Positions 2,753 through 20,967 of a stretch of 22,879 bases of DNA are shown here, piece after piece. A program made the position numbers and the translations under genes. This DNA comes from an uncultured virus (IMG/VR IMGVR_UViG_3300046501_000595). Its lineage: Duplodnaviria > Heunggongvirae > Uroviricota > Caudoviricetes. The stretch's first letter is position 1, and the number at the start of each line of letters is the position of its first letter. The notes under the pieces are model-generated. The model made no database searches. It had not been told where the DNA came from and saw only the letters and a program-made list of their open reading frames with translations. The stretch lies in the IMG/VR virus record IMGVR_UViG_3300046501_000595. One strand, written 5' to 3'.

Positions 2753-2800
2753 TTTTCTCACTTGGTGGGCTTTCTTTGGGTGAAAGCCAAAACCCTGAAT

Positions 2801-2960: not shown

Positions 2961-3554
2961 CTACAGCGATGGCCCCTCGTGCTCTACGCGCTTGGGCTTC
3001 TCAGCGCATAAGGCAAGCTGACCAGGGTGCTTCTGCATAAGCGTGTTAAGGATGGCCACGCCGTCAAATAGGTTCAGCCCCTCCTCCTGGAGTTGCAGGG
3101 TCTGGTCAGCGGTGAGCTCGGCCAGCATGATCGCTTTCTCTGGCTCAAGACAAACCGCGATCACGTCTTCGCTGCCTTCGTACTCAACCAGGTCATAACC
3201 TTCGGAGATGAGGCTCTTACGCAAAGCCACGAAAGACTCCTTATCAGCCACCTGATGGCCATCCTCGTCTCGCCCGTAAAAATCATCCCGGTCGATGTCG
3301 CTGTATGGCTTGCTGCACGGAATGGCGAGCACGTACACATGCTCGTGCTCCCCCTCACCCAGCTCAGCGGCATTCTGAGCGTATTCGGCAGCATTCTCTG
3401 GGATCTCGGTGGTGAACAGGCCTAGGCCGGTATTCAGATCCATGCCCCGGCCCATGGCCGCAGTCGTGAATGCGTGAATTTTCCGGGCGCTGCCATGGAA
3501 GCCGATGCGGTATTCGCCAGCTTCCAGCATTTTTAGAATTGCTTGATGGGACAC
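2961..3554 (-). CDS. ART-PolyVal-like ADP-ribosyltransferase-fold protein
   Basis: GFHGS...F...GLGLFTT...AAEYA...VYVL...KPY...L.SEGYD pattern. Confidence 0.65.
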   Translation of the reverse strand: MSHQAILKMLEAGEYRIGFHGSARKIHAFTTAAMGRGMDLNTGLGLFTTEIPENAAEYAQNAAELGEGEHEHVYVLAIPCSKPYSDIDRDDFYGRDEDGHQVADKESFVALRKSLISEGYDLVEYEGSEDVIAVCLEPEKAIMLAELTADQTLQLQEEGLNLFDGVAILNTLMQKHPGQLALCAEKPKRVEHEGPSL

Positions 3555-3754
3555 GGACGTTACTCATTCTGGTCAGGCTTCCATCGTAGCAGCGCCGCAG
3601 TCACCGGAGCCAATCTGGTTCGGTGAAGTGGGCAGGATTCGCGCCAGGCAGCCAGCGAAATCAATGCATCAACATCATCCCAAAAAGGATCCTTGCTTGT
3701 ACAAAAACGGATCCTCTATGCTGGGGCCAGAACGCCACTATTTCAGGGTTTTTT

Positions 3755-4495
3755 ATGGCAGATCGTCCCCTATTCGTCGTCGCTTTACCCATCACCGCCA
3801 ACACCCAATTGCATGCCGAGGACGCCGGCGCTGTTGGCGTTTATGAGCTGATCGGCGACACATCCATGTCTCGCAGCGTGGCCGCCGCCAGTGCGCTGGA
3901 GTCGTTTCATACCAGGGTCGCCATTTCGTACCCTGAGGATTTTGTCATCAAAGTTGTTGACCCTATGCTGAGGCAAGTGCTTGAGCCCGGCGAAGCAGAC
4001 GACCCATTGGTTCTGCCATGCCAAAAGATCAGCTCTGTTGTCCGGGGCTGGATTGCAAACCTGGTCGATGACGTGGAACCTATCGCAGAGACCCCAGGAC
4101 AGAGGAAGTCGACTGTGTTGGTTGTTGCAGTGCCTGTCCGGCCTAAAGCGGAACTACACCCGTACGACAAGGGTGTTCGCGGTGTGTATTCGGTCGACAT
4201 TACTGAATCCAATTTGACCGATGCCCAGAAGGCTGGAAGCGCTCTGAATTCCTTCAACCTCACCGTTGCGGTGGAGGTACCTGAGGACTTTCAGGTCACG
4301 GTCGTTGATTCATCCGATAAGATCCTGGAACCTGGTGCAGAGCCAGAGTCTCGTGAGTTCTACTGCGAGATAGTCACTTCGGGGATTTCAAAGGACATGC
4401 TGGCCTTGGTGGGAGCTCCTGTCATTGAGGAGAAGTCTCAAAGCAAGCCAGCGGCTGTTCGCCACGAAGATGACAACCCCTCCCCTAGCTTCTGA
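3755..4495 (+). CDS. Hypothetical protein with two tandem homologous domains
   Basis: Repeated VVA.P....LH..D.G..GVY...A.SAL.SF...VA...PEDF...VVD....LEPG; ATG 3755 preferred over the GTG at 3623. Confidence 0.8.
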   Translation: MADRPLFVVALPITANTQLHAEDAGAVGVYELIGDTSMSRSVAAASALESFHTRVAISYPEDFVIKVVDPMLRQVLEPGEADDPLVLPCQKISSVVRGWIANLVDDVEPIAETPGQRKSTVLVVAVPVRPKAELHPYDKGVRGVYSVDITESNLTDAQKAGSALNSFNLTVAVEVPEDFQVTVVDSSDKILEPGAEPESREFYCEIVTSGISKDMLALVGAPVIEEKSQSKPAAVRHEDDNPSPSF

Positions 4496-4508
4496 TTGCA
4501 GCAGGCAC

Positions 4509-4544
4509 AAAAAACCCCGCATAGCCGAAACCTGCGGGGTTTTT
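4509..4544. terminator. Bidirectional intrinsic terminator
   Basis: AAAAAACCCCGCA-loop-TGCGGGGTTTTT between convergent genes. Confidence 0.85.
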
Positions 4545-4576
4545 CTCGCTATAGAACCTGGGGGCATCCGCCAAAG

Positions 4577-5017
4577 CTATGCGGCTTTCGGTGATGTCGC
4601 TTCGTCCGATTTGGCGCTGACGCCAGCTAAGAGTCGGGTCTTAAGTTCAGCCGGCAGTTTCAGGTTCTTGATGTGTCCTGCGATGTCATCGATCAACTGC
4701 GCCTGGCTGGCTAGCTGTTCCTCCATCTGCGCCCTGCCCTCGATGAGCTCCTCGATCTTGCGCGTAGCGCTGACCTTTAGCCCATCCAGGCGATGCTTGG
4801 CCATCTCAGAGCTTACTGCCTTCCCCGCCTCCATGTCTGGAGCATCACTAGCATCAAAGATCCAGTGGCGCAGTTGGCCAGCCACCATGGAAGCCGCTTT
4901 GCGCTCGATCTCCGGATAGTTCTGGGGATCGGCAGCAATCGCCTCGCAATGCGCCTTGGTGCGCTTCATAGCCGCTACCAGCGTGCTTGCCGGGCTGTTC
5001 GATTTCTTCTTTTTCAT
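4577..5017 (-). CDS. Hypothetical helical/coiled-coil protein
   Basis: ATGA overlap with the upstream gene; last gene of the operon before the terminator. Confidence 0.7.
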   Translation of the reverse strand: MKKKKSNSPASTLVAAMKRTKAHCEAIAADPQNYPEIERKAASMVAGQLRHWIFDASDAPDMEAGKAVSSEMAKHRLDGLKVSATRKIEELIEGRAQMEEQLASQAQLIDDIAGHIKNLKLPAELKTRLLAGVSAKSDEATSPKAA

Positions 5018-5508
5018 GCTGAAACTTCTGGCTCAATGGGTTTATCGAGTGTGTCGGTGGTAGGTGTAAAGCTGAGCTTCAGAGAACCGCTAGCAGCGAG
5101 GCCAATATGCCTGCGAATGCCGAGGTGCAGCTGCTCTGACTTGATGTTTCGATACCCTACGCCCAGGAAGCCGTAGAACAGAGGTGCAGTGACCGTGCTG
5201 AGCAGCCCAGCAGCAAAGGAAACCTGGAACACAATGGCGAAGAGTCGGGCCGGATCATCGGCGAAGTACTCATTGAACTGGGTTCCATGCAGGGATGCGT
5301 ACAGGCCGGCCAGCAGAACACAGAACATCGTCGACATGGGGATGCATTCAAGGAACAGTTTGAATGTCACATACACAGAATGCGCGACCTGATACGGGTA
5401 GATCATCAGGTTTTGCTTCACCTGCTTGAGCAGGCCGAGATACTCCGCATCTGTGATCTCCCCCACGTACACGCCTTCGCACTCGATCTTCCACACACCA
5501 TTACGCAT
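5014..5508 (-). CDS. Hypothetical inner-membrane protein
   Basis: Two hydrophobic segments; TGATG coupling to the upstream ORF. Confidence 0.75.
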   Translation of the reverse strand: MRNGVWKIECEGVYVGEITDAEYLGLLKQVKQNLMIYPYQVAHSVYVTFKLFLECIPMSTMFCVLLAGLYASLHGTQFNEYFADDPARLFAIVFQVSFAAGLLSTVTAPLFYGFLGVGYRNIKSEQLHLGIRRHIGLAASGSLKLSFTPTTDTLDKPIEPEVSA

Positions 5509-5882
5509 CAGTCCCTCCTCATCTTGTCATTCTCCAGTTTGGCCAGCGCATCGCAGAGCTCGTCGCGGGCCGTGTGTGTCAAAATCTCTGTGAACTTGAT
5601 GTTCTGAGTCAGCTCAATCAGTTCAGGGTGGTATTTGTTGATCCTGTCCAGCGTGATCACGTCACCGAACGGCAGCTTCATCGGCACACTGCTGACGCCA
5701 AGGTTCAAGCAGTCCACCTGTAGTTCGCCGGAGGCGGTTGTGGCGCCGTGATTCTCCGAACTGATGGTATTCAAGGCCTCACGCATAAAGAACAAAGCCC
5801 CACCCAGCAAGATCAAAGAACAAACCCCGGCGTATACGCACATCAGCGCCAGCTCTCGGCGTTTAAACCTCTCTCTGGTCAT
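5508..5882 (-). CDS. Membrane-anchored hypothetical protein (Cys-pair family)
   Basis: N-terminal TM helix, DCLNL and ARDELCDAL motifs, ATGA coupling. Confidence 0.75.
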   Translation of the reverse strand: MTRERFKRRELALMCVYAGVCSLILLGGALFFMREALNTISSENHGATTASGELQVDCLNLGVSSVPMKLPFGDVITLDRINKYHPELIELTQNIKFTEILTHTARDELCDALAKLENDKMRRD

Positions 5883-6217
5883 CGAGGTACACCATAGTGA
5901 GTGACTGCCTCTTCCAGGGGGCTACAGAGCCTATCGCGCTCACCCCGCCCGAACCCATTGGCCTTGAACTCCGCCAGCATTGGCTCAGTGCGTTTGTGAT
6001 CAAAAGCCTCAAGCGCCGGGTATGCCTGCCTCGCCTGAACGAGCAGCATCCTGAGCTGGAAAGGTTCTGCCTGGTCACCAATTTTCAGGCTGTAGCACTG
6101 GTCTGCTAGGTTGGCGTACCTGGGGCTACCGTAACGCAACTGGGTCACGAAGAATATGCCGGTAGCGACGGCCACCAGCACCATCCCACCGGCAATCATT
6201 AGCTGCTTCCTGGACAT
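5879..6217 (-). CDS. Membrane-anchored hypothetical protein (Cys-pair family)
   Basis: N-terminal TM helix, DQCYSL and ERDRLCSPL motifs, SD AAGGT. Confidence 0.75.
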   Translation of the reverse strand: MSRKQLMIAGGMVLVAVATGIFFVTQLRYGSPRYANLADQCYSLKIGDQAEPFQLRMLLVQARQAYPALEAFDHKRTEPMLAEFKANGFGRGERDRLCSPLEEAVTHYGVPR

Positions 6218-6224
6218 GTCACCT

Positions 6225-6314
6225 TTACCTCAGTGCGATGTGCACCACTGCGAGGGAAATGAAAGCAAAGCCCGACACCTTCCACAGAATTTTCTCGAGA
6301 CGGATGGTGTGCAT
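6225..6314 (-). CDS. Small hydrophobic peptide (29 aa, not in ORF track)
   Basis: MHTIRLEKILWKVSGFAFISLAVVHIALR* fills the gap between two operon genes; AAAGG upstream. Confidence 0.5.
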   Translation of the reverse strand: MHTIRLEKILWKVSGFAFISLAVVHIALR

Positions 6315-6318
6315 GGGA

Positions 6319-6765
6319 TCAGCCTTTGGTGTCGATTGGAGGGGGTTGTACCGCTGGCGCCGGCGCCGACGCTTTCTGGAGCGCTGCGCAGAACTCCTGA
6401 CGCCCTACCGGCGTTAGGTGTGACAGTTTTTCGTTAGATTCGCAGGTTGTCTGGCTTGCTGCCGGCGAAGGTTCTGCCAGCTTTTCAAGCGATACGCACA
6501 ATCCCTGACGGGCTGCCGGCGATAGTTCGTTCTGCGAAGCATAGGAAGCGACAAGAGCACTGTGGCGCTCATCTTTCCTGGAGATCGCTCCCAAAACCCA
6601 GATGGTGGAAGACGACACCGGGCGGTCTATCACTGAAACTGGCAGATTCCAGCACATATCTACGAACGAGGCACTGCCGGTGCGAGGCTCTGGGAGTTTC
6701 TGTACCAGGTAGACCGACAAACCGATAACGGCTGCGCCAACCAGAACACTACAAAGCTTGTTCAC
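6319..6765 (-). CDS. Membrane-anchored hypothetical protein (Cys-pair family, duplicated C-terminal helix motif)
   Basis: N-terminal TM helix, DMCWNL, ARQGLCVSL and GRQEFCAAL motifs; TAGTG coupling. Confidence 0.72.
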   Translation of the reverse strand: MNKLCSVLVGAAVIGLSVYLVQKLPEPRTGSASFVDMCWNLPVSVIDRPVSSSTIWVLGAISRKDERHSALVASYASQNELSPAARQGLCVSLEKLAEPSPAASQTTCESNEKLSHLTPVGRQEFCAALQKASAPAPAVQPPPIDTKG

Positions 6766-7019
6766 TAAAAAGGACTCTCACGGGATGATTCAAGATGGCT
6801 GCTGCTTGATAGAAGCCTGATTTGGCTTTCAGATAGACGCCCGTAGAGGTAAGCGCTGTAGGCAAGCAATCCAACGCCGATAGTACAAGCAATCACCGAA
6901 ATTTCACTTATGCCGGTTGGAGCGCCCCTGAGAACGCCGTTGATACCGAAACCAAGGCCGGCAATGGAGGTGATGAAATACGCTACGAGGGGTTGATTAT
7001 TCTTATGGCTCTGGGTCAT
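6765..7019 (-). CDS. Small two-TM membrane protein
   Basis: Two hydrophobic stretches; first gene of the coupled operon; start uncertain (7019 or 7037). Confidence 0.6.
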   Translation of the reverse strand: MTQSHKNNQPLVAYFITSIAGLGFGINGVLRGAPTGISEISVIACTIGVGLLAYSAYLYGRLSESQIRLLSSSSHLESSRESPF

Positions 7020-7195
7020 GGCGGGATTCCAAGGCACAAGGGAACCCCTGATGGGGAGCTAGGGGTTTGGATGGTTGAATCATGCCAGATCACCTCAAAT
7101 TTCCAAGCCCCAAACTGTCAATTTATCACAATTATTTACTGCCTCCGTTTCATGATCACTCCTTGCGCGGGAAGGTGGCCAAGGCTTACCCACAG

Positions 7196-7232
7196 TAGTA
7201 GACAACGATCTAAGGATAACCTGTCCTGGTAC
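7196..7232 (+). repeat. Upstream motif, copy 1
   Basis: TAGTAGACAACGATCTAAG-N9-TCCTGGTAC, matched at 8194-8226. Confidence 0.65.
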
Positions 7233-7308
7233 GTCAAAAGCACATTTGCGGCTGCTTCTTTGGCACTGTTAAGCTGAATCGAGACGCACACAATCAAGGA
7301 ATAGAAAA

Positions 7309-8097
7309 TTGACCAGGCTCAAATATCTCCTCGAGCAGTTCGGCCTTATGTTCACTGAAGGCCGGCACCAGGTGAAATCGTTGAAATTGGAAAGCTCTGC
7401 AGATTTGCACCAGCTCTCCTTTGCTGAAACCCTGTGGCCTGACGTCAAATCCGTTGCCTTCAAACCGGTCGAATTCAAGGCACAGGTTGTCCCAGGTGAA
7501 GAACCGGCGAAGACGCTGCTCAGGGCTATGGTGACTGCCCCGGAAAGCGTCAACAAGGTCGCCAAGCTGTTCAACACCTACAACCTGGATCGGAACCTCA
7601 AATGGTTCTTTGAGGAAATCAAGGAAGTCCAGCAGCTGCATAAGAACAACCTCAAGATGTTCGACGCCTTCACTCAGCCAGGTACCCAGGAGGTTGAGGC
7701 CTACTTCGTTCGCCCGGAGTGCGCCCAACTCCACCCACAGTTATTCAGCACGGCTCAAATTTCGCCAAAACAATCGACCATCGATGACCTGTGCAGGCTG
7801 GGCATGTACCGTAAGGCTGCCCTGCTTTCTATTCCGGCAAGCGTCGCGCCCGAGAATGTGGCCGAGTTCGCTTACTCCGCCCTTCAAAATGAGCAATCGA
7901 GCTGGAGTGGCAATCAGGACATCATCAACCTCACGGACTTCCCTCGTTCGATGCAGGTAGGTGACGTGTTCATCATCGGCAGCCATGGCCATGTTGTTAA
8001 GGGCATGGGGTTCGAGAAGCTGGACAGCTTTTTCCCGAGGGATCCAGAAGCCGAGGTGGCCCGGCATGACTGGAGCTCCGAAGGCCCAGGTCTTTAA
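7309..8097 (+). CDS. Hypothetical protein with C-terminal YodL-like domain
   Basis: RSMQVGDVFII...HVVKGMGFEKL resembles the YodL S.SVGD...V...GF..L signature; SD AAGGA before TTG. Confidence 0.65.
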   Translation: MTRLKYLLEQFGLMFTEGRHQVKSLKLESSADLHQLSFAETLWPDVKSVAFKPVEFKAQVVPGEEPAKTLLRAMVTAPESVNKVAKLFNTYNLDRNLKWFFEEIKEVQQLHKNNLKMFDAFTQPGTQEVEAYFVRPECAQLHPQLFSTAQISPKQSTIDDLCRLGMYRKAALLSIPASVAPENVAEFAYSALQNEQSSWSGNQDIINLTDFPRSMQVGDVFIIGSHGHVVKGMGFEKLDSFFPRDPEAEVARHDWSSEGPGL

Positions 8098-8108
8098 ACT
8101 CCACCGTT

Positions 8109-8131
8109 GAGCGCCAGCCACCCTGGCGCTC
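8109..8131 (+). terminator. Hairpin after the YodL-like gene
   Basis: GAGCGCCAG-CCACC-CTGGCGCTC, no clear U tract. Confidence 0.4.
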
Positions 8132-8193
8132 TATCGCCACGCCCCTCCCCACTTGATTACCGATACGCGATTTGTGGGGAGTTACACACCCGC

Positions 8194-8226
8194 TAGTGGA
8201 CAACGATCTAAGCGGTTTCCTGGTAC
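8194..8226 (+). repeat. Upstream motif, copy 2
   Basis: TAGTGGACAACGATCTAAG-N5-TCCTGGTAC, matched at 7196-7232. Confidence 0.65.
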
Positions 8227-8248
8227 CTTACTGAGCATTCGACATCCC

Positions 8249-8767
8249 ATGGTTACCAAGCAATCTGTCTACCACGGCACGAACTTTGAATTCGACTGCT
8301 TCGACTCCAAGAAGCTTGGCGTGAGCTGCGACAACCCAACCACCATGATGGGGTTCTTCTTCAGCTCGTCCAAAGAAGGTGCCTATCGCTGGGCCCACCG
8401 GAGCTCCACATGGGGCACCTTGCAAGGCACTACCGTCAGCAATCCGATGGTTGTCATAGCCGACGTCAGCGAGCTCCAGTTCAAGAAGATGTCAGCCGAG
8501 AAATTCACCTACTACCTGAAAACAGCCCGCCAGGAGACCATTTTCAGGCATGTGAACAAGTGGAAGTCGAACGGCTATGACGGCCTACACATCAAGCTTG
8601 TCGATGAAGACTGGTTCTGCGTATTCGAGGCCGGCAAGATCAAGATCCTGGGGAGGGAACATGAGCCCGCAGCGATCAAAGAGCCCGCTCCATTCATTAC
8701 ACCAGCCATTCCTCCAGTTGAATTTAAAGCTACCAAGATTCCTTACATTCCCAGGTTAGAGCCGTAA
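8249..8767 (+). CDS. ART-PolyVal-like ADP-ribosyltransferase-fold protein
   Basis: VYHGT...FD.F...GFFFSS...A..WA...GYDGL...FCVFE...IKIL; ATG 8249 preferred. Confidence 0.72.
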   Translation: MVTKQSVYHGTNFEFDCFDSKKLGVSCDNPTTMMGFFFSSSKEGAYRWAHRSSTWGTLQGTTVSNPMVVIADVSELQFKKMSAEKFTYYLKTARQETIFRHVNKWKSNGYDGLHIKLVDEDWFCVFEAGKIKILGREHEPAAIKEPAPFITPAIPPVEFKATKIPYIPRLEP

Positions 8768-10478: not shown

Positions 10479-10530
10479 ATATCTGAAACAATTAAATCTA
10501 CCTTTCAAAGGCTAATTGGAGAAACACAGG

Positions 10531-11661
10531 ATGATTACTGCCGTTTACGCACTTTCTGGCGACCCAATCACTTTTGGTCATATTGACATCATCAACCGAG
10601 CCGCCGCTGGGTTTGATCATCTCATTGTTGGGCTTGGCGTAAACCCCAACAAAAAATACATGCTAACCCCTAATGAGCGAATAGCTGTTGCCAAACAATC
10701 GCTATCCCACCTCAACAATGTTGAGGTAATGTTCTTCGAAGGCCTGCTTGTGGATTTCGCATTTGAACAAGGTGCCACCATCATTGTTCGTGGCATCAGA
10801 AACGCCTCGGATGCAGTGGCCGAACAGGCCCTCGATCAGGTCAATGGCTCTCAGATGAACATTGATACTTTTTTCATGTTTTCACGTTCCAAGCTTGCAC
10901 ATGTAAGTTCCAGCAACGTAAAAGCACTACAGGCCGAAAACGGACTCATTCATGAATATGTTCCGCTCCCTGTGAAGAAAATGCTCGAACGCAAGATCTC
11001 ACACCAGCTTGTCTACGGGGTAACAGGCGTAATGGGTTCTGGGAAATCATACGTTGCCGAGCAACTTTCTATCTATGCCGAGGCACAACATGCGGTATCA
11101 GATAGCAACCCGCTGGTTCACAACATTGAACTTGATAAGCTGGCCCATCAAGTATATGAATCAGATAAACCGGGCTACAAAGACATTCGTGAGAAAATCA
11201 AAAATCACTTTGGAACACTAGACCGGTCAAAAATTGGGCAGATTGCCTTCGGCAGCGAGAACAGCAAGGAGCACGTTGACTTTTTGAACAACATTTTCAA
11301 AGACCCTGTCATGGTTCTGCTGCGTCAGGAGCTACGTGGCAAACAAGGCATCCTGCTGATTAACGCAGCCTTGCTTGTGGAGAGTGACCTGCTCAATCTC
11401 TGCAACAACCATGTGATCCTGGTCAACGCTGAAGACGCAGTGCGCCATGAGCGTCTGGTTAAATTCAGGAACATTGACCCCGTGGTTGCTGAAAAACGCA
11501 TCAAACACATGAAAAGCAACAGCACCAAGAGAGCGCAGATCAAGAGGTCTATTTCAAGCTCTCACTTTGGAAATATTGTAGACTTTGACAATTCCTCTAG
11601 TAACCTTGAGCTGATTGCCAACCTGTATGAACAGCTTAAAAGCGAGTACTACGAAAGATAA
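10531..11661 (+). CDS. coaD: Phosphopantetheine adenylyltransferase (CoaD) fused to dephospho-CoA kinase (CoaE)
   Basis: N-terminal DPITFGHIDII, NPNK, FEGLLVDFA, IVRGIR, VSSSNVK (PPAT); C-terminal GVTGVMGSGKS, LDKLAH, LDR..IG...F, ALLVE (DPCK); SD GGAG before ATG 10531. Confidence 0.9.
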   Translation: MITAVYALSGDPITFGHIDIINRAAAGFDHLIVGLGVNPNKKYMLTPNERIAVAKQSLSHLNNVEVMFFEGLLVDFAFEQGATIIVRGIRNASDAVAEQALDQVNGSQMNIDTFFMFSRSKLAHVSSSNVKALQAENGLIHEYVPLPVKKMLERKISHQLVYGVTGVMGSGKSYVAEQLSIYAEAQHAVSDSNPLVHNIELDKLAHQVYESDKPGYKDIREKIKNHFGTLDRSKIGQIAFGSENSKEHVDFLNNIFKDPVMVLLRQELRGKQGILLINAALLVESDLLNLCNNHVILVNAEDAVRHERLVKFRNIDPVVAEKRIKHMKSNSTKRAQIKRSISSSHFGNIVDFDNSSSNLELIANLYEQLKSEYYER

Positions 11662-11844: not shown

Positions 11845-13155
11845 TTAAGCTAGCGGTAGGCCCTGCCGAACTTCAGCAGCAAAAGCCTGTAGATCGAGAT
11901 CCTCTTCGGCCAATCCCTCAAAAGCAAACGGGTTCAACATCTGCCGTGTGGCCAGCACGTTGCGGTCGACCTGGCTGATACCTGACTCATTGCAGACGCT
12001 ATCCCAGTACACCTGAATGCCTTGAAGCTGCATGAAGACGATTTTCTTCGCGTCTTTACGCTCCAGGAGGAAAAGGTGGGCGGCATCAAGGCACAGTGCG
12101 ATCTGGCTTTGGTTCTGCTCACCCATGATGAGCATTCCCTGGCTCGCGACGTTGCCGGTGCGGTTCTGTGGGCAGATATCGTAGGCCGGCGTCAGGCTGT
12201 AGGCTTTGCCATCAAAAAAGGCAGCATGGTTCCGGGCATGGTCGTCCGTGTTGCCGCAGAGAATGTTGAACACCAGCCTGGAGAACAACTCCTGCAGGTC
12301 GCGCTTAGGGTCGTTAAAATCCTTGCGAATAATGTGCGTGAGGTCTTCATAGCTCGTATAGCGAGCCATCATCTCATCGAGTCCAAGCAGTGTCAGCGCA
12401 CTCACCATAATCTTCCTGGCCCAGCTGCCGTTCTTCTTCACACGGTCGAAGCGTTCGATCAGCAGTACGTCCTTGCCAAGCACATGCTCAATCTTCACTG
12501 GCGCGACCTCCAGGCCGACCAGGCTCGCCAGGCGCATCATGATGAATTCAGACCGCACGACGCTGATCGTGTCGTTGGAGGCCGAGAATTTCGCCACGTA
12601 CTTCAGATCATCCGCTTTGATCAGCGACTTTGGCCGCGCCCCACCGATAGAAGAACCATGGCGCAAAGCCTGGTCGAGCTCTGGCGTTAGTGGGATCCCC
12701 TTCTCCACCAGCTCGGCGGCGTTGAGTAGCTCAGCGAGCGTGGCATTGTCGTTACTCCTCGGAACGTACTCAGTCGGCGATTCCTGGAAGTCCAAAGCAC
12801 CGATACGATCAGAACCGGACTCGAGCATGTACGTCAGCTCATCGAGATCCTGATCGTAAGCTTTAAGCCCAGCCTTACCGTAAAGCCGATTGATGATAAC
12901 GCGACGACCCCATGCGTCAGGCGATGCGTCCCGTATACCACTGGCAATCATCAGGCCTTTCGGCGGACTAATGATCTCCGGACTCAAATTGAGCTCGAGG
13001 TTATTCAGCGGGATGGCGTTGGGATTGTTCAGGTAGCTTTGACCGTACAGAAACGAGTACCGACCACGGCTTCTGACCAATCTGCCGGCTACAACAGGCT
13101 CTGTGCTATCGGGCAGCCATGTCCATACGTAACAGACTCGATCTTCAGAAGGCAT
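11845..13155 (-). CDS. hipA: HipA-family Ser/Thr kinase toxin
   Basis: DASPDAWGRR N-terminal motif, GSSIGGARPK Gly-rich loop, IERFDR, GNTDDHARN catalytic motif, LTPAYD. Confidence 0.92.
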   Translation of the reverse strand: MPSEDRVCYVWTWLPDSTEPVVAGRLVRSRGRYSFLYGQSYLNNPNAIPLNNLELNLSPEIISPPKGLMIASGIRDASPDAWGRRVIINRLYGKAGLKAYDQDLDELTYMLESGSDRIGALDFQESPTEYVPRSNDNATLAELLNAAELVEKGIPLTPELDQALRHGSSIGGARPKSLIKADDLKYVAKFSASNDTISVVRSEFIMMRLASLVGLEVAPVKIEHVLGKDVLLIERFDRVKKNGSWARKIMVSALTLLGLDEMMARYTSYEDLTHIIRKDFNDPKRDLQELFSRLVFNILCGNTDDHARNHAAFFDGKAYSLTPAYDICPQNRTGNVASQGMLIMGEQNQSQIALCLDAAHLFLLERKDAKKIVFMQLQGIQVYWDSVCNESGISQVDRNVLATRQMLNPFAFEGLAEEDLDLQAFAAEVRQGLPLA

Positions 13156-13471
13156 TGCTCACCTCAGTTTTGGATTCGCGGACGGAAGCAGGCAGTAAAG
13201 CGATTTTGTCGGTGAGCGTGCTGGCAAGCGTGTTAGGCCCCATAGGGGACTCAAACAACTCAATGCCGAGGAGATGCGCAACCTCAAAAGCCACGCCGAT
13301 TTCGCAACCAGGCTCACATTTCTCCAGGCGTTGGATAAGGCTTCGGGAAACGCCAGCTCGATCTGCCAGGTTTTGAAGGGTCAATCCCCTCTCCTTGCGC
13401 TTGAGCTGAATCATTTTCCCTAGAATTTCGAGAGCCTTTTTGGTGTAAGGCGAGATAGCGCGCTTGCCCAT
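13145..13471 (-). CDS. XRE/HipB-like HTH antitoxin
   Basis: RKERGLTLQNLADRAGVSRSLIQRLEK HTH; overlaps the hipA start; SD GAGG before ATG 13471. Confidence 0.88.
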   Translation of the reverse strand: MGKRAISPYTKKALEILGKMIQLKRKERGLTLQNLADRAGVSRSLIQRLEKCEPGCEIGVAFEVAHLLGIELFESPMGPNTLASTLTDKIALLPASVRESKTEVSNAF

Positions 13472-13535
13472 CAGGACATCCTCAATAAATGCTTTGCGTA
13501 AAGATAGCATTTTGAGGGCCTGCGGACAACATTAG

Positions 13536-13582
13536 TACCCGTTAAAAGGTATCTAAGGTATTTCGTGACTCGTTTATGGGTA
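13536..13582. promoter_or_regulatory. Candidate antitoxin operators
   Basis: TACC-CGTTAAAA-GGTA (13536-13551) and degenerate GACT-CGTTTATG-GGTA (13567-13582) upstream of the HTH gene. Confidence 0.35.
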
Positions 13583-13597
13583 ATTTTCGCTGCCGAT

Positions 13598-14617
13598 TTA
13601 CAGGGGATATTGGCGTGGTGGATGGATACTCCCCCACCCCCTCCAGCTCCAAACAACCGGGTGCTTTGGCGGGCGCTGATTGGGATAGCCCAAAAGACCA
13701 GTCAACAACGAAGTTGTGTTCGAGGCGGTGAACAGGTTCTCCCAGAAGCGATATGAGATCGACGCCTGCAGATCCAACATCATCACCGGGAACAGAGTCG
13801 CGAACCTATCACTGAAGGTGTTGGCCACCTCCCGCGTCCCTTCATGGCTGATGACCAGGTACATGCCATTTCCTGTGCGGGTAGCTGCAAGGTGATCGCC
13901 ATGCGTGAAGTCTTTGATGTCCAGGCACACAGGGCTGATCACGCCAGCCTCGCTGAGGATTGATTGCCAAGTCAGCGCCAGCTCCGATGTCATGCCATCG
14001 GCAAGGATGAAAAGTTGCTTTGACTGCCAGGCGTCTACCGCGTTGATCTGGTTGGCGATGTTGATGGCTGCATGCTGGGAACGACTCCAGGCATCGCAGA
14101 GCTTAATCGGCTTGAGCTCACACTCTGTCGGGTAACCCAGCGCCTGCTCAACCATACGGTGAGTCAGTGCCGACAGCATCAGGATCGATTTAAGGTTAAC
14201 GAAGCGCCTATCTCGATCAGGCAGAGCATCGATGGCCAGCACTGAACCTTTGCCCTGCTCTTGCAGATGCCGCGCAGCTCCGCCATCCGGATCGCCGGAG
14301 AGGAGAATCGAGCCTTCGCCCCCTCGGGCGGCTATAGCTTCAGCAACCTCAACGGCGTCCGGGTGGTTACCCCGCAGTGATGTCAGTACCGGAAGGCACT
14401 TGATCCGCGTGTTTTGCCCATACTCCAACGCAGTCACAAACCGGGAAGGAGTGCCGGCGATCCGTTGCATCATAGAGACGCCATAGAGAGCGGAGATCTT
14501 GGCCAGGCCAGCCGCAATCCACACCGTTGAAGGTGCATCCTTGAGCACCAAAGCTGCCGGGAGCACAGCTGGGTCATCAATGCGCTGAATCAGCATTTCG
14601 ATGTCTGAATCTTCCAT
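13598..14617 (-). CDS. Double SIS-domain phosphosugar-binding protein (GlmS/AgaS/FrlB-like, divergent)
   Basis: WIAAG, TSLRGNHPD (like SQSGETAD), FVNLKS and KDFTHGD (like EFRHGP) in the expected order; 5 bp downstream of the WYL gene. Confidence 0.65.
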   Translation of the reverse strand: MEDSDIEMLIQRIDDPAVLPAALVLKDAPSTVWIAAGLAKISALYGVSMMQRIAGTPSRFVTALEYGQNTRIKCLPVLTSLRGNHPDAVEVAEAIAARGGEGSILLSGDPDGGAARHLQEQGKGSVLAIDALPDRDRRFVNLKSILMLSALTHRMVEQALGYPTECELKPIKLCDAWSRSQHAAINIANQINAVDAWQSKQLFILADGMTSELALTWQSILSEAGVISPVCLDIKDFTHGDHLAATRTGNGMYLVISHEGTREVANTFSDRFATLFPVMMLDLQASISYRFWENLFTASNTTSLLTGLLGYPNQRPPKHPVVWSWRGWGSIHPPRQYPL

Positions 14618-14622
14618 GTGTC

Positions 14623-15501
14623 TCAGTCCTTCACGTATTTCATCAATGCCTGCCAGTTGGCGACAGCAACTCCGAAATTTCGGTCTTGAGGCTCGCCCTC
14701 GTATTCACGTACAGCATCGACCAGGTACATCGCAGAAAGCTGGTAGTAGACCAGGCACTCACGGGTGCTGATCACGCATTGCCCGTCTTTCATGCTGTAG
14801 TCGCGTTCAACCACCTCCCGCTGTATCTGGGATAGGGTCGCGGACGGGACAAGGATGATGTCCGCCATCGTGTTCCACGCCACATCGGCTTCAGCGCCCA
14901 CCCACTCAGATTCCGGGCTATCACAGGTATCGAGCACTCGGCCTGGAATGATGTCGGCAAAGACCTTCTTATCCACCATGAAGGCACGGATGTGCCAGCG
15001 GATCTCGGTCTCCACAATGTCGTGAGGGCAGATGACGCGCCACTCAGGTTCAGCCTTCTTCCCTGATTGGTACAGCACCGATATAGGCATCCTCAGTCGA
15101 AACGACCGGGAGATGGCCATGAGCACCGTATCGCTCATACCGCGTTTGATGGGCTTCACAGATTCGCGCTGAATCGAACGAAGCGAAGGATCTTCATCGG
15201 CGTTGGCCGTTAACCACCCTTCCAGGCTTTTCTCAAAGAGGGGTTCAAACTCCTCCCCCTTGATATAGAGCTTCTTGCTCGTGTGGTAACGAAGATTGGT
15301 CGGCGCCAGCTCCTGATAGAGCTTGATATCACCAGAGGCCTGCTGAGGAGAGATCTCGAAGCGGCTGACCAGGTCAGAACGGTTCAACTCACCTACCCAA
15401 AAAATGCGGTCTTCAAGCCATTGCAGGCGTGCCTGTATCGCCTGGCCGTTGCGCAAGTTTTTGAAAAAATCAGGTGAGCAGTTTGACATCACTCTAGTCA
15501 C
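14623..15501 (-). CDS. CapW-like wHTH-WYL-WCX transcriptional regulator
   Basis: RLQWLEDRIFWVGELNRSDLVSRFEISPQQASGDIKLYQELAP wHTH, Y.S...WRVICPH...RWHIRAF...FADIIPGR WYL, VVERDYSM WCX; SD AGGAGG before GTG. Confidence 0.88.
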   Translation of the reverse strand: MTRVMSNCSPDFFKNLRNGQAIQARLQWLEDRIFWVGELNRSDLVSRFEISPQQASGDIKLYQELAPTNLRYHTSKKLYIKGEEFEPLFEKSLEGWLTANADEDPSLRSIQRESVKPIKRGMSDTVLMAISRSFRLRMPISVLYQSGKKAEPEWRVICPHDIVETEIRWHIRAFMVDKKVFADIIPGRVLDTCDSPESEWVGAEADVAWNTMADIILVPSATLSQIQREVVERDYSMKDGQCVISTRECLVYYQLSAMYLVDAVREYEGEPQDRNFGVAVANWQALMKYVKD

Positions 15502-15561
15502 GCTTATAAGATCCTCCTAGTGAATAGCACGATCATACAGGAAAGCTTAGGCCATGGTCGA
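15483..15561. promoter_or_regulatory. Overlapping divergent promoters with a central palindrome
   Basis: Plus TTGACA-N16-TATAAG (15483-15510); minus TCGACC-N18-TATGAT (15561-15532); CTTATAAG palindrome at 15503-15510. Confidence 0.55.
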
Positions 15562-17395
15562 GGTCGCAGTAGTAGAATTTGGTGCCAAAGCGCACACAAA
15601 CAATGGGTTACAGGAAGATACCCGCCCTCGCGCTCAGCTGCCTATAGCAGCGTTGCAAAGCGAGGGTTCCATTGCGGATCTCTCCATAGAAGACCTAGGC
15701 ATCCGGGTCGACCTAATCCGTGAGCTGCGTAAGCTCCCGGCTGATGCTTTATCGAACATTCGTCACTTCCAGACTCAAGTCGGTTGCCTCAATCGCTGCG
15801 GTTTTTGCAGCCAGGGTGCCGGCAAGACGCTGTGGAATATGCCACGCCAGGCTCTGGCCAACCTCATCTCGGCACTTAAGACTGTGTGCCTAGAGAATGC
15901 ACTGGAGCGTGGTCTTATTAAAGCCGACCCGCTCGATGGCAACCATGTGTTTGCTGCTGATTTCGTCATGCCGGCGCTTGGCCTGCTCGGTGATCAGCGT
16001 AAAGACCGCCCCGGCGTGATCTATTGCTACCTGGATAACGATCCGGCTGCTTACCCGCACCTTGACGACATGATCCAGTGGCTGCATGAAGACCTGGGCG
16101 TCAAAGTCCGCATTGCCACGGTCGGCTACAGTCGCCAAAACCCGGTGATTCAGCAGATGCATGAGCGCATCAGCGAAGAGTTGCTCAGTGGTATCGCCGG
16201 GCTGCGTCTCTCCTTCTCCCCTTACACCTACGGCTGGACTGATATGGCCCAGAAGCGTGGTGAAGGTAGTCGTGATGAGTTCGAGCTGGACACCGCCACC
16301 CTGCTCTCTACCTACCGCAAGCTGTTCCTCGAACGCAAAGGCCGCAAAGGTGCGTGTATCGAGCTGCGCTTCCGGCCAATGATCACCACCGCCCCTGTTC
16401 ACATTGAGAACGTGGAGGGTCGATTGGTCATTCGCTGCGGGTCTTACCTCGTGGTGCAGCGCAATGCCGATGTGCTGAACGTCGCCAACATCACCGATGC
16501 TCGCTGCCACGGTAATGATCTCGATGTTGATGGTAGTCCCTGCCTGATTGTCCGGGCCGCACCTGAGCTGTTGGAGGTACCAGTCGCCGACGTCGTAAAC
16601 GCTCTGTTCCACGGTGGTCAGATGCCGTTTGTGCCGGAGAGCGTTTACGAAGGCCTTCTGCATCGGCTGCGTAATGACGATGGCGAGTATTTCTCGGTCG
16701 ACGCCGAGCGTACCAAGGCTGGCGTTTACTCCAAGTTCTTCTACCCGAAGACCGATGCACGCCCTAAAGCAGGAATGATCGACGGTGAGCGCTACCACTT
16801 AAACGCGATGATGGCTGCCAAGCTCCAAGGCCTCGGCTCCACATGGGAGCACGTTGACCTTCTGCTGGGTGGTTTGGAGGCAAAAGCCCAAGCCATTGAA
16901 GTGATCGACGCGGGCGAAGCCAAGTACATCCGTGAAGAGGTCGTCGGTCTGCTGCAAAGCTACGTGCGCACCCTCAAGCTGGCCAAGTACCCGAGCTACA
17001 CCTACTTCGACAAAGAACACTCGGTCGATACCGGGCACATCTGTAACCTGGGACGCGCCTACAGCGAGTACAAGGCTATTGCATCGCGCCCTGACCTTCC
17101 GCTTACCCCGAAGCACGAACGTGCCTTTGGGCCCACTGGGGAGCTTGCAGAGGAAGGTATCGCCTGGCGTCTTGCGGTGACTCCGCAGGATAGCGCCAAG
17201 AATGCACGCGGCGAGCGCAACACCTATCAAGAGCACCCTTCGATCCTGATCGAGAAGCTCGACTTGGCCATGACCGCCACCAGCACTGGGCAGTCACAAG
17301 CGCGCTACTTCATCCGGACTCAACCGATCCAGAAGATCACCCTCCAGGACTCGATGAGTTTCCCGGTGATCCCTGGGCACATTGCAAGGAAGTAA
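15554..17395 (+). CDS. Radical SAM enzyme of unknown function with a large C-terminal extension
   Basis: CxxxCxxC in TQVGCLNRCGFCSQ (aa 78-85), followed by barrel-like motifs YLDNDP, RIATVG, LRLSFS. Confidence 0.85.
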   Translation: MVEVAVVEFGAKAHTNNGLQEDTRPRAQLPIAALQSEGSIADLSIEDLGIRVDLIRELRKLPADALSNIRHFQTQVGCLNRCGFCSQGAGKTLWNMPRQALANLISALKTVCLENALERGLIKADPLDGNHVFAADFVMPALGLLGDQRKDRPGVIYCYLDNDPAAYPHLDDMIQWLHEDLGVKVRIATVGYSRQNPVIQQMHERISEELLSGIAGLRLSFSPYTYGWTDMAQKRGEGSRDEFELDTATLLSTYRKLFLERKGRKGACIELRFRPMITTAPVHIENVEGRLVIRCGSYLVVQRNADVLNVANITDARCHGNDLDVDGSPCLIVRAAPELLEVPVADVVNALFHGGQMPFVPESVYEGLLHRLRNDDGEYFSVDAERTKAGVYSKFFYPKTDARPKAGMIDGERYHLNAMMAAKLQGLGSTWEHVDLLLGGLEAKAQAIEVIDAGEAKYIREEVVGLLQSYVRTLKLAKYPSYTYFDKEHSVDTGHICNLGRAYSEYKAIASRPDLPLTPKHERAFGPTGELAEEGIAWRLAVTPQDSAKNARGERNTYQEHPSILIEKLDLAMTATSTGQSQARYFIRTQPIQKITLQDSMSFPVIPGHIARK

Positions 17396-17398
17396 GCT

Positions 17399-17980
17399 AT
17401 GAGCGGAAAACTGATCGTCATCACCGGCCTTGACGGCTCTGGCACCTCATCATTGGCGGAGCAGCTGTCCGCCCGTGATCCAGGATCGCGAGTTGTTAGA
17501 ACTCCGGACTCCCCTTTTGACGCATGCCGGGAAGTCATCGACCTGCAGGTACGCCACAAGTCCCAGGCGGCGCACTACCTGTTCTATCTCAGCAGCGTCG
17601 TCTTTGCCTCAACCGAGATCGAAGAGCTGCTCAAGACCGGTAACGTTTACTGCGTTCGCTACCTGATCGATACCGTTGTCTCGCACCGGGCCGCAGGCCT
17701 GAACGTGGATCTCAACTACGACAGCGAATTCTATTCGATCAAAAAGCCTGATCTGACCATCATGATTGGTATCGACGAGCAGGTTCGGCAGAAACGGATC
17801 TCCGCCCGTGTCGGTGGCAAAGGCTTCCTCGACAAGCTGCTCGACGATGACGAGCGGCGTGCGCGTTTCCACCAAGAGTTTGAACGTCTTGCTCACCATT
17901 ACGTGACCATTGAAAATGATGCGTCGAATATCGAAGTCGCCCTGACGGCGGCTATGCAACACATGCCGTGGATCAAATAA
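17399..17980 (+). CDS. Thymidylate kinase/CMPK2-like NMP kinase fold protein with a variant P-loop
   Basis: LIVITGLDGSGTSS, LFY, VRY..DT..SH, KPDLTI, R.KRI..R. Confidence 0.82.
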   Translation: MSGKLIVITGLDGSGTSSLAEQLSARDPGSRVVRTPDSPFDACREVIDLQVRHKSQAAHYLFYLSSVVFASTEIEELLKTGNVYCVRYLIDTVVSHRAAGLNVDLNYDSEFYSIKKPDLTIMIGIDEQVRQKRISARVGGKGFLDKLLDDDERRARFHQEFERLAHHYVTIENDASNIEVALTAAMQHMPWIK

Positions 17981-17983
17981 GAC

Positions 17984-18484
17984 ATGTCAAAGCGCTTTTA
18001 CCTTTCCCGTAAGGGCCTGACCCGCCTTTCGCAGCAGCGCGACCAGCTGCGGGAGGATCTGCAGCGTTCCACCAAAGAAATGGGTGAGTCCGTTAAGCGG
18101 GACAACGACCTGCGGGAAAACCCGGAGTACATGCAGCTCCAGACGAAGGTCAGCTACGAGCTGCCGAACAAGATCTCCGAGATCAGCCGTATTCTCGACA
18201 CACACATGCTGATCGAGGACATCGACGCGATCAAGGAAGGACACTTCGACGAGGTACTGCCGGGCATGCAGGTAGTGGTCGAGGACGAGCATGGCGCAAG
18301 CCGTACGTTCTCAATCATGGGCTACGAGGAAGGCAATCCGGCCCTAGGCATTGTCTCCTACCTGACCCCGGTTGCTAACGCCATGCTCCACAAGGGTATC
18401 GGCGATGAAGTGGAGTTGCCCCACAATGGCAAAGCTGTCCCCTACGAAATCATAACTATAGGGCGCAGTCCTCATCTTGATTGA
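17984..18484 (+). CDS. GreA/GreB-family transcript cleavage factor
   Basis: YLSRKG...coiled coil...NDLRENPEY acidic tip, FSIMGYEE.NP..G.VSYLTPVA.AM..K..GD.V. Confidence 0.9.
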   Translation: MSKRFYLSRKGLTRLSQQRDQLREDLQRSTKEMGESVKRDNDLRENPEYMQLQTKVSYELPNKISEISRILDTHMLIEDIDAIKEGHFDEVLPGMQVVVEDEHGASRTFSIMGYEEGNPALGIVSYLTPVANAMLHKGIGDEVELPHNGKAVPYEIITIGRSPHLD

Positions 18485-18627
18485 AGGCTCTAGCGTCAGC
18501 CTTTGGTGCCATTCGGCGGGTAGTTTCTGATCCCGCTTGCCCATCGGGGTGGGTGCACTATATTGATGCGTACCAGTGAACCCCATCCTGGGATTGTGGC
18601 AATCGGTCATCCGCTGAAAACCACGAG

Positions 18628-18662
18628 AAAATGCCGCCAAATCACAAAGGCGGCATTTTTTT
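18628..18662 (+). terminator. Intrinsic terminator of the rSAM-kinase-Gre operon
   Basis: AAAATGCCGCC-loop-GGCGGCATTTTTTT. Confidence 0.8.
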
Positions 18663-18721
18663 GTCCATAATTTTCGCTGTAAAGTATTCCGCCTCAGGAG
18701 CAACCAGGTTAAGAGAACGAT

Positions 18722-19195
18722 ATGGCACAGGAAAACGCGGTAACGCGAACGTCGAAAATCAGGAGAAATCCCGACCGAGTTCCGCCGACTGATCATCAGG
18801 TCAATGCCATGATGAAAAGCATCCAGGCAGTCGGAAAGATTCTCAAGCCAATTGACGTCATCCCTGTGGGCGACGGCTATGAGATCGACGACGGCGAGGT
18901 TCGTTGGCTGGCCGCTATCGGTCTCAAAATGGATATAGTCCCGATCAATGTGGTGGATGTCGACCGTGAGGTGAGCGCCATAGATTCGATCATCATGAGC
19001 ACGGCTAGTGAAGAGCTCGCGCCATCTGATGTCGTCAGTAATCTTGAAGCACTCGTAAACGAGTTCGGTGAAAATGCTGCCGAATTGGTTTATGAAAAGC
19101 TGGTGGTTCTTCAGGGGTACACCGCATCAGCCCCCGAGCTACGAGACAGAATCATCGTGCTTTTGAGCAATTGCGGGATCACTGCCGAGGTTTAA
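18722..19195 (+). CDS. ParB/Sulfiredoxin N-terminal domain protein
   Basis: IRRNP...SIQAVGKILKPIDV...YEIDDGEVRWLAA...VPINV; no evident HTH. Confidence 0.75.
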   Translation: MAQENAVTRTSKIRRNPDRVPPTDHQVNAMMKSIQAVGKILKPIDVIPVGDGYEIDDGEVRWLAAIGLKMDIVPINVVDVDREVSAIDSIIMSTASEELAPSDVVSNLEALVNEFGENAAELVYEKLVVLQGYTASAPELRDRIIVLLSNCGITAEV

Positions 19196-20397: not shown

Positions 20398-20967
20398 CTA
20401 AAGCTCTAGACCGCTGATCTCATGGTCATAACTGGGTTTTTGCACAACCGCGATTTTGATCTGCTGTGCGTTGAAGGCAACATACTGATCATATGACCGG
20501 GTCTGCCTTTGACCGGCATCCATCCCGGAAAAATCGGTCACCCCCTGCAAAATCATGCCATCAAAACCCTGCATTTCTAACGAGTAGGCAAGATTGTCAA
20601 TGCTCGTCCAGTCGATCTCGCCAACTTCATCACCAACTAGGGTGAGGAGCTCTGCAGCTGAGATGACTCTCGGGTTCTTCATGGACAGATAAACCGACAT
20701 AACCGTAGGGTCACCGTCATGGCCCTCTCGGGCGTACTGAGAACAGGCGTAGGCCATTGCCGCATCCCAGTCACAGGTGAAATAGGCTGGAAAGGTATCA
20801 AACACGCTGAAATCATTCGGGGTTCCGTGGAAAACCACCATCGGCGCCCCGGCTTCAGTTACCACCTTACTCCCATCAAACCATCGCCTGAAGGAAGGTA
20901 GATCCGTTCTGATTTGTCTGGTAGCCAGATCTTGGTTGGCTGACGACATATGGACATTTTCCAGCAT
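20398..20967 (-). CDS. ART-PolyVal-like ADP-ribosyltransferase-fold protein
   Basis: [11 protein letters not shown]...G.PMVVFHGT...F..F...YFT...A..YA...VYLSMKNP...GFDG...[10 protein letters not shown]. Confidence 0.82.

Follow-up and report, generated by a model that had tools for sequence, protein, structure and literature searches.

The locus described here raises two questions: whether five closely packed genes on a contig recorded as viral DNA belong together, and what they would do for the replicon that carries them. The genes lie in a 22,879-nt stretch of DNA (hereafter, the window) from the IMG/VR record IMGVR_UViG_3300046501_000595, an uncultured member of the Caudoviricetes. They encode a protein of 613 amino acids (aa) with a radical S-adenosylmethionine (SAM) fold, a thymidylate-kinase-family protein, a Gre-type transcript-cleavage factor, a CapW/BrxR-type repressor, and a double-SIS-fold protein. 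A sequence-only reading of the window had described five packed genes around a divergent 52-bp region, closed by a terminator, and had proposed that they form a new defence system. Our analysis indicates that the five genes belong together as a single module that moves horizontally. A defence role for the version in the window is the single most likely reading of its function, held at rather less than even confidence.

Layout of the locus and linkage of its genes

All of the elements in that description were present. The arm on the minus strand consists of the double-SIS-fold protein (P0002, 339 aa; 13598..14617; open reading frame [ORF] call and fold) and the CapW/BrxR-family repressor with a winged helix-turn-helix (wHTH) and a WYL domain (P0003, 292 aa, GTG start; 14623..15501; ORF call and phmmer). 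The operon on the plus strand consists of the radical-SAM-fold enzyme of an unannotated family (P0001, 613 aa; 15554..17395; motif and fold), the thymidylate-kinase-family protein with an atypical P-loop (P0004, 193 aa; 17399..17980; Pfam and PADLOC), and the GreA/GreB-type factor, an extra paralog (P0005, 166 aa; 17984..18484; Pfam and tip alignment). In the ORF list of the window, the gaps within the arms were 5, 3, and 3 bp, and the divergent gap was 52 bp (15502–15553), or 64 bp if the regulator starts at an ATG four codons in. Closing the plus-strand operon is a hairpin that resembles an intrinsic terminator, bordered by a T-run on one side and an A-run on the other (18623..18664). It was recognised as an inverted repeat of 16 nt (18623–18638 / 18649–18664) with 88% complementarity and a 10-nt loop, followed by the T-run; a simple terminator scan missed it because the loop exceeds the limit of the scan. 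The approximately 140 nt between the Gre stop codon and this hairpin (18485–18622) contained no complete ORF of at least 80 aa and no Rfam match, and Rfam returned no family over the whole window.

The radical-SAM family is a rare one with sharp boundaries. An exhaustive profile search revealed 206 clusters at E ≤ 0.001 among 1.84 billion representatives, and a word-index search returned 99 clusters, all without an informative name (where a name is given, it is "hypothetical protein" or "uncharacterized protein"); two of the 99 carried an N-terminal NADAR domain. In a collection of 185,579 species with one genome per species, 99 stretches encoded a relative. We examined 101 loci, comprising 80 genome loci kept from these 99 stretches and 21 loci from a metagenome scan, with ORFs called naively and partner hidden Markov models built from the loci themselves. 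The Pseudomonadota hosts were a Pseudomonas megaplasmid (99% identical), Azoarcus, Acinetobacter, Methylomonas, Atlantibacter, and Lonepinella; the others were candidate phyla radiation (CPR) bacteria, Micrarchaeota, many metagenome-assembled genomes (MAGs) of gut Clostridia and Bacilli, Veillonella, Streptomyces, and Kitasatospora. Among sequencing runs, matches were listed only for soil and rhizosphere DNA metagenome contigs and for no RNA data set.

The neighbours of the radical-SAM gene were strongly patterned. Among the 80 genome loci, a NADAR domain was adjacent or fused to it in 56, a kinase-like gene stood beside it in 34, a Gre-like gene in 33, a LysR regulator in 28, a CYTH-like protein of about 198 aa in 21, the SIS protein in six, and the WYL regulator in five; 14 loci had none of these partners, with nucleotide enzymes still nearby. 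The 21 metagenome loci agreed with this pattern. Six of 12 members of the ~198-aa family weakly matched Pfam CYTH (best E 8.8e-4) and its profile matched PDB entry 1yem at 2e-4; a clear CYTH gene (2e-11) was present in CPR loci. The architectures differed among lineages: kinase-like, Gre, radical SAM, and CYTH in CPR bacteria; kinase-like, radical SAM, NADAR, Gre, and CYTH-like in Clostridia; kinase-like, radical SAM, and a NADAR::Gre fusion in Veillonella and others; LysR, radical SAM, and a NADAR::DHH fusion in Bacilli; and SIS plus WYL divergent from radical SAM, kinase-like, and Gre in Pseudomonadota. The NADAR::Gre fusions were found in L025 (7579–8484), L046, L051, L052, and L060, among Veillonella and gut MAGs, and radical-SAM::NADAR fusions in L018 (4415–6631) and the metagenome proteins P0094 and P0097. 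In the one actinomycete locus scanned against Pfam (L070, Kitasatospora; 3750–8265), a thymidylate-kinase-like gene, an ATP-grasp gene, the radical-SAM gene, and a NUDIX gene stood together, and its ORF clusters recurred in other actinomycete loci. One archaeal locus combined NUDIX, Dam methylase, radical SAM, and glycosyltransferase genes, Micrarchaeota loci contained a HAD phosphatase, and some Bacilli loci contained an aminotransferase gene.

A radical-SAM ORF was present in 95 of the 101 loci and full flanks in 57, and counts from these loci are phylogenetically non-independent. Among the 57, 16 had both the kinase-like gene and Gre, three had the kinase-like gene alone, none had Gre alone, and 38 had neither; the NADAR::DHH fusion occurred in 21 and never together with the kinase-like gene or Gre. 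A FastTree phylogeny of 91 radical-SAM ORFs (10 loci without an ORF of at least 480 aa were left out) showed the kinase-like/Gre architecture in the clades of Pseudomonadota and CPR bacteria and in several clades of Bacillota. The linkage of the module genes is far beyond chance: in these three groups, which are deep and far apart, the kinase-like and Gre genes are direct neighbours of the radical-SAM gene. The kinase-like and Gre genes are broadly linked to the radical-SAM gene, and the SIS and WYL genes accompany it within one clade. A lack of such co-occurrence was what the sequence-only reading had named as grounds for its own refutation.

The five proteins

All 28 homologs compared keep the three cysteines of the CX3CX2C motif in the 613-aa protein (C78, C82, and C85), the last of which is preceded by an aromatic residue. 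Its predicted structure, a confident model, contains a partial TIM-barrel radical-SAM core, which is interrupted and trailed by a beta-rich region (approximately residues 267–410), a helical hairpin (approximately 412–480), and a C-terminal sheet. The protein had no match in Pfam (even at E ≤ 0.1, including PF04055 Radical_SAM), NCBIfam, PADLOC (E ≤ 0.01), or PHROGs, and a sequence search of the family against PDB chains gave nothing meaningful. Foldseek returned no match to the model at E ≤ 0.001 and only weak radical-SAM rows; the fold was identified by VIA-align, and the structural neighbours included the sugar and nucleoside tailoring enzymes BtrN, DesII, BlsE, and OxsB. Phage radical-SAM clusters in the ESM Atlas (score 0.85) served as a lead only. 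The radical-SAM label of the sequence-only reading consequently stands by motif and fold but not by profile, and by sequence the protein is not a member of the viperin family (0 PADLOC families at E ≤ 0.01). Because every recurring enzymatic partner acts on nucleotides, their phosphates, or the N-glycosidic bond, the substrate is very probably a nucleotide.

The kinase-like protein matched Pfam Thymidylate_kin (PF02223) at 46.3 bits against a cut-off of 27 (E 5.1e-12), fell below the cut-off of the dTMP-kinase equivalog TIGR00041 (42.1 against 83.25 bits), and was the only module protein matched in the PHROGs scan. Its P-loop, TGLDGSGT[ST], has threonine in place of the Walker-A lysine in 30 of 30 aligned cassette members; the lysine is kept in the Kitasatospora copy (L070) and in two canonical Tmk copies from the nearest genome (G001; 44% shared words, two contigs), which also provided the canonical GreA and GreB references. 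Where these canonical Tmk copies have an acidic residue (D or E) before the R-[FY] pair, the window protein has valine. The family part of the earlier label, nucleoside monophosphate kinase, is therefore supported, but the Walker-A lysine is replaced, and "kinase" is best taken as a family label. Besides its chromosomal tmk, G001 carries a second full-scoring thymidylate kinase gene on contig 2, the related megaplasmid (505768–506373; 136.3 bits, above the cut-off).

In PADLOC, the kinase-like protein matched PDC-M51B (6.9e-26) and VakA (3e-12), and the neighbouring pVip model is described there as "Viperins associated with kinases". The module resembles pVip/VakA and viperin–CMPK2 in the overall logic of a radical-SAM enzyme paired with a kinase. 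It differs from them in that the 613-aa protein has no pVip or Radical_SAM sequence match and has large beta-rich and helical regions beyond the core, that its kinase-like protein lacks the P-loop lysine, and that Gre, NADAR, CYTH, and SIS partners are added. The NADAR partners of other phyla matched PDC-M42C (1.1e-16), which extends the likeness to the PDC-M51/PDC-M42 candidates; their further models were matched neither by the five window proteins (E ≤ 0.01) nor by the partners in other loci (E ≤ 1e-5).

The GreA label was borne out, with the protein being an extra paralog that keeps the acidic tip. It matched Pfam GreA_GreB (PF01272) at 57.8 bits against a cut-off of 26.9 (E 1.1e-15) and the N-terminal PF03449 at 21.8 bits, slightly below the cut-off of 24.5; both Pfam domains were detected. 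The tip residues D42, E45, N46, and E48 align with the D..E-N..E pattern and do not vary among the cassette members or between these and the canonical GreA and GreB copies from G001. In contrast to canonical GreA/GreB, the module protein remained below the equivalog cut-offs (TIGR01462, 65 against 139 bits; TIGR01461, 34.6 against 171 bits), is an additional plasmid copy, always accompanies the kinase-like gene, and in some loci forms a fusion with NADAR. On contig 1 of G001 lie the greA of that genome (172 bits) and another Gre-family match, probably greB, that narrowly misses the cut-off (133.9 bits); the module-type paralog is on contig 2.

The regulator was described earlier as CapW-like, and phmmer against the PDB agreed: its residues 23–260 of 292 aligned with residues 14–261 of 299 of CapW (7tb6_A; E 1.3e-33), and the BrxR structures 7t8k_A (1.2e-24) and 7qfz_A (6.4e-23) followed. 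The Pfam WYL score (21.5 bits) was slightly below the cut-off of 21.8, and the PADLOC WYL match was weak. By coordinates, the gene lies upstream of the operon on the opposite strand, which is also where the CapW report places capW; according to the same report, the palindromes bound by the CapW protein cover the −10 site (PMC9122588). The plus-strand operon has promoter-like elements in the control region (15483..15553; promoter scan and cross-locus comparison), namely TTGACA (15483–15488) and TAAGAT (15507–15512) with an 18-nt spacer (10 of 12 matches), and the −35 element lies over the opening codons of the regulator gene. These elements are flanked in the window by the motifs CTAGTCAC and CTAGTGAATAG. 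The window, L002, L003, and L088 share the order TTGACAT, CTA[GT]TCAC, a −10-like element, and CTAGT[GA]A[AC]TAG, and the control regions of L088 and L091 contain the perfect palindrome GTCTAGTAACTAGAC. The CTAGT-type motifs around −10 are thus conserved; the palindrome is imperfect in the window, where the repeat finder reported none. The resemblance to CapW–CBASS and BrxR–BREX therefore comprises a homologous regulator, its divergent upstream position, and repeated or palindromic motifs around −10, whereas the operon contains no CBASS or BREX gene in the PADLOC scan and the regulator is paired or fused with a double SIS.

For the double-SIS protein, the earlier SIS label was supported by fold but not by profile. 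The AF2 model (pLDDT 91.9) had 226 Foldseek PDB matches at E ≤ 0.001 and the fold of a tandem SIS pair; the top match was the GlmS isomerase domain (7dnr_A; E 1.8e-12, TMq 0.70), and NagB-II and FraB were also matched. Pfam SIS remained below threshold (14.3 bits against a cut-off of 25; E 0.037), and a sequence search of the family against PDB chains gave nothing meaningful. SIS clusters in the ESM Atlas (scores 0.90–0.92) were leads only. The family comprises only 55 clusters, and several of these come from contigs whose length equals that of contigs with a member of the 613-aa family. Two loci carry a WYL::SIS fusion of approximately 630–650 aa: L008 of Atlantibacter hermannii (4059–5948, minus strand) and the metagenome contig L091 (2784–4745, minus strand). 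RpiR/MurR-type regulators consist of a helix-turn-helix (HTH) and a SIS sensor. The fusions resemble these in attaching SIS to a DNA-binding regulator; the module differs in its wHTH-WYL DNA-binding part and tandem SIS, and in the window the two are separate genes. From these features, the SIS protein may be either a phosphosugar- or ligand-binding partner of the regulator or an enzyme of the pathway, and the fusions point at least as much to a sensor role as to the handling of a phosphosugar. In the available parts of the WYL-regulator literature, we found no pairing of a WYL regulator with a double SIS.

Mobility and genomic surroundings

The divergent arrangement of SIS and WYL against radical SAM, kinase-like, and Gre was found in L001, L002, L003, L087, and L088, and L004 (Methylomonas) has the same layout, ended by the contig end inside the radical-SAM gene. 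Apart from the Pseudomonas megaplasmid, all five genes thus occur together in Azoarcus, Acinetobacter, and Atlantibacter (there with the regulator and SIS fused) and on two metagenome contigs. In L009, a different WYL regulator (HTH_11 plus WYL), a 112-aa ORF, and the SIS gene all lie on the operon strand. Seven rows with WYL and SIS formed a single clade with a support of 99 in the FastTree phylogeny. The flanks of the module at the WYL/SIS loci were different in every genome; the module therefore moves as a unit. The flanks contained Imm63 and umuDC in Atlantibacter and an IetA-like ATPase in Lonepinella. In L087, a metagenome contig, the module lies inside a defence island (3043–5527 and 12459–17488) that includes PIN_8, a TIR-domain protein, JukA (4.7e-57), and PDC-M40B (5.5e-59).

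The module in the window lies on a Pseudomonas-type megaplasmid, and the ORFs that surround it are typical accessory and conflict genes of a large plasmid. They include a Fic gene (522–1301, minus strand; PADLOC PDC-S04, 1.1e-57), a PTH2-domain gene (2252–2887, minus strand), three ADP-ribosyltransferase (ART)-PolyVal-like genes, one of them weak (2961–3554, minus; 8153–8767, plus; 20398–20967, minus), and a ParB-N gene (18722–19195, plus). An ARAGORN call of tRNA-Ser (GCT; 2801–2893, minus strand) overlaps the 5′ end of the PTH2-domain ORF, and one of the two, the start of the ORF or the tRNA call, may be in error. Adjoining the SIS gene, a HipA-like kinase (11845–13155, minus strand; HipA_C, 1.6e-44) overlaps an upstream HTH_3 gene (13145–13510, minus strand), and the two form a toxin–antitoxin-type pair. 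Next to this pair lies a single ORF that fuses CoaD (pantetheine-phosphate adenylyltransferase; TIGR01510, 7.2e-41) to CoaE (dephospho-CoA kinase; 6.5e-16) at 10516–11661 on the plus strand, which is also found beside the module in L001. A classical defence island around the window module was considered and rejected: the surrounding genes formed no named defence system, and the nearest PADLOC-type matches, Fic about 13 kb away and weak HipA matches, were not decisive.

Searches for the locus elsewhere returned little. A megablast against E. coli genomes and PLSDB plasmids gave no match, and tblastn with the 613-aa protein gave two weak partial matches to Streptomyces plasmids and none in phage records. 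The scan of IMG/VR contigs found no relative of the radical-SAM family. In PADLOC-DB v2, the matches of the module (kinase-like and weak WYL only) composed no named defence system. The gene combination and the PDC-M51/PDC-M42 candidates were not described in the full-text literature, with the limit that supplementary tables of BrxR and CapW papers could list such neighbours. The sequence-only reading had likewise not recognised the combination as a named system. A paper that names both NADAR and GreA concerns unrelated TPR-GreA/B-PIN systems (PMC9503650).

Proposed mechanism and competing explanations

The reading that we favour, tentatively and somewhat short of an even chance, is an inducible modified-nucleotide pathway that acts on transcription and has a net role against phages or other mobile elements. 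The defence part of this reading follows from the CapW-type control, the mobility, and the plasmid location. The 613-aa enzyme would act on a nucleotide, and together with the kinase-like protein it would make, or keep phosphorylated, a modified nucleotide that reaches RNA polymerase. The Gre paralog, with its catalytic tip intact, would sit in the secondary channel of the polymerase, where it would most likely let the host enzyme cut the analogue off the RNA 3′ end, and polymerases unable to use Gre, such as phage single-subunit enzymes, would stay blocked. In the Pseudomonadota clade, the CapW/BrxR-type repressor would hold the operon off at the conserved operator around −10 until a stress or infection signal released it, and the double-SIS protein would act either as a ligand sensor with the repressor or as a processor of the sugar part of the product. 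Self-protection would be the simplest role for a Gre factor whose acidic tip is intact: within the host polymerase, it would excise the analogue from the RNA 3′ end. Because Gre strictly depends on the kinase-like gene and excludes the DHH fusion, the distribution suggests that Gre is needed when the product stays phosphorylated and accessible to the polymerase. The data establish who the genes are, their folds and motifs, how the elements of the promoter are arranged, and that the linkage is conserved and the module mobile. We infer the substrate class from the partners, and the same holds for what is made, what Gre does, what induces the operon, and whether it serves defence.

Several observations weigh against this proposal. 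The genomic context of the module is mixed, and no PADLOC system was matched: the radical-SAM and SIS proteins have no PADLOC model, and the Gre protein has only a marginal LeoBC match (E 0.0087). The flanks in Azoarcus (L002) are a cytochrome bd oxidase, a sigma-54 activator, and glmS/glmU, which are housekeeping-like, those in Acinetobacter (L003) are arsenic-resistance genes, and those in Methylomonas (L004) are molybdate regulators. The 613-aa protein is twice the size of viperin, and the peptide epimerase EpeE outscored viperin in its structure comparison. The kinase-like protein may have no phosphorylating activity at all, since it lacks both the lysine of the Walker-A motif and the acidic residue that precedes the R-[FY] pair. 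The non-independence of the locus counts also belongs here. Finally, the family occurs most often as LysR, radical SAM, and NADAR::DHH in gut Bacilli (21 of the 57 full-flank loci); six of these loci share the same flanking ORF clusters, and this two-gene form under LysR control looks like a vertically inherited metabolic operon, which keeps a metabolic core function very much alive.

The alternative that survives best, although we consider it somewhat unlikely, is a regulated pathway that salvages, repairs, or modifies nucleotides or cofactors and plays no part in conflict. An unusual nucleotide or nucleoside would be recycled or remodelled by the radical-SAM enzyme together with the hydrolases (NADAR, DHH, CYTH, and NUDIX), SIS would isomerise or deaminate the sugar phosphate set free, and Gre would adjust transcription to the change in the pool. 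This explanation draws on the LysR-controlled Bacilli form with its shared flanks, the presence of the family in small-genome lineages (CPR, Micrarchaeota, and Mollicutes-like Bacilli), the sugar-phosphate isomerases, deaminases, and deglycases nearest in fold to the double-SIS protein, the aminotransferase in some loci, the housekeeping-like appearance of the flanks in L002–L004, and the absence of the family from the phage records and IMG/VR contigs searched. It accounts less well for a family that is rare and patchy (99 relatives in 185,579 species; 206 clusters in 1.84 billion representatives), for a Pseudomonadota module that is mobile, resides on a megaplasmid, and is under a regulator family so far tied to defence, and for a dedicated transcript-cleavage factor, which has no obvious place in it. 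A salvage lyase of the queuosine type was also considered and is not favoured.

Immunity by poison plus polymerase repair is, in our judgement, quite unlikely. The radical-SAM and kinase-like proteins would make a chain-terminating or stalling nucleotide, Gre would provide self-immunity by removing the analogue from the multi-subunit RNA polymerase of the host, the hydrolases (NADAR, DHH, CYTH, and NUDIX) would destroy the released fragments, and only polymerases that cannot make use of Gre would be poisoned.

DksA-type factors act with ppGpp, and Gre could in a comparable way be the effector itself: a small-molecule ligand made by the radical-SAM and kinase-like proteins would act with Gre through the secondary channel to reprogram or shut down the host RNA polymerase, as a switch for abortive infection, dormancy, or plasmid–host control. 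The presence of Gre only where the kinase-like gene is present, the NADAR::Gre fusions that join a nucleotide-processing domain to a polymerase-binding factor, CapW-type repression, which fits a costly or toxic output, and the HipA/HTH pair, Fic, and ART genes in the neighbourhood are all consistent with such a switch. However, the tip residues match those of cleavage-competent GreA/GreB, so that rescue fits at least as well as inhibition, and there was no evidence of toxicity; we regard this explanation as improbable.

A cluster of the nucleoside-antibiotic type, directed against competing bacteria and with Gre or the hydrolases as self-resistance, is decidedly improbable. The actinomycete branch (kinase-like, ATP-grasp, radical SAM, and NUDIX), the aminotransferase in some Bacilli loci, and the tailoring enzymes among the structural neighbours (BtrN, DesII, BlsE, and OxsB) point in its direction, but the module in the window has only three operon genes and two regulatory-arm genes and contains no exporter, peptide-assembly, or resistance-transporter gene. 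To our knowledge, a CapW-type regulator would also be unusual for antibiotic clusters. That the five genes are unrelated neighbours with a coincidental cysteine motif is barely credible: profile databases do not recognise the 613-aa and 339-aa proteins, but co-occurrence refutes this explanation, and linkage across phyla, the fusions, the invariant cysteines, and confident models with radical-SAM and double-SIS folds speak against it.

Beyond the window, the preferred reading of a transcription-targeting modified nucleotide concerns a rare but phylum-spanning radical-SAM family that the profile libraries searched do not recognise and that is wired to nucleotide enzymes. The coupling of such a family to a private copy of a transcript-cleavage factor is unusual, and there is a real chance that it represents a new principle. 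If a transcription-targeting nucleotide is indeed made, viperin-type chemistry would extend to a new enzyme family, Gre paralogs would gain a role in immunity or self-protection, and the module would be a source of new nucleotide analogues. If immunity works by poison plus polymerase repair, the principle would be new, with self and invader told apart by polymerase proofreading. For the CapW/BrxR regulator family, the WYL::SIS fusions hint at a new kind of sensor input. In the BrxR report, known defence genes lay no more than 50 kb from 164 of 347 BrxR homologs, and the others are proposed there as possible markers of systems yet to be discovered (PMC9122601). The module offers a case on which to test this proposal for orphan regulators of the BrxR/CapW type.

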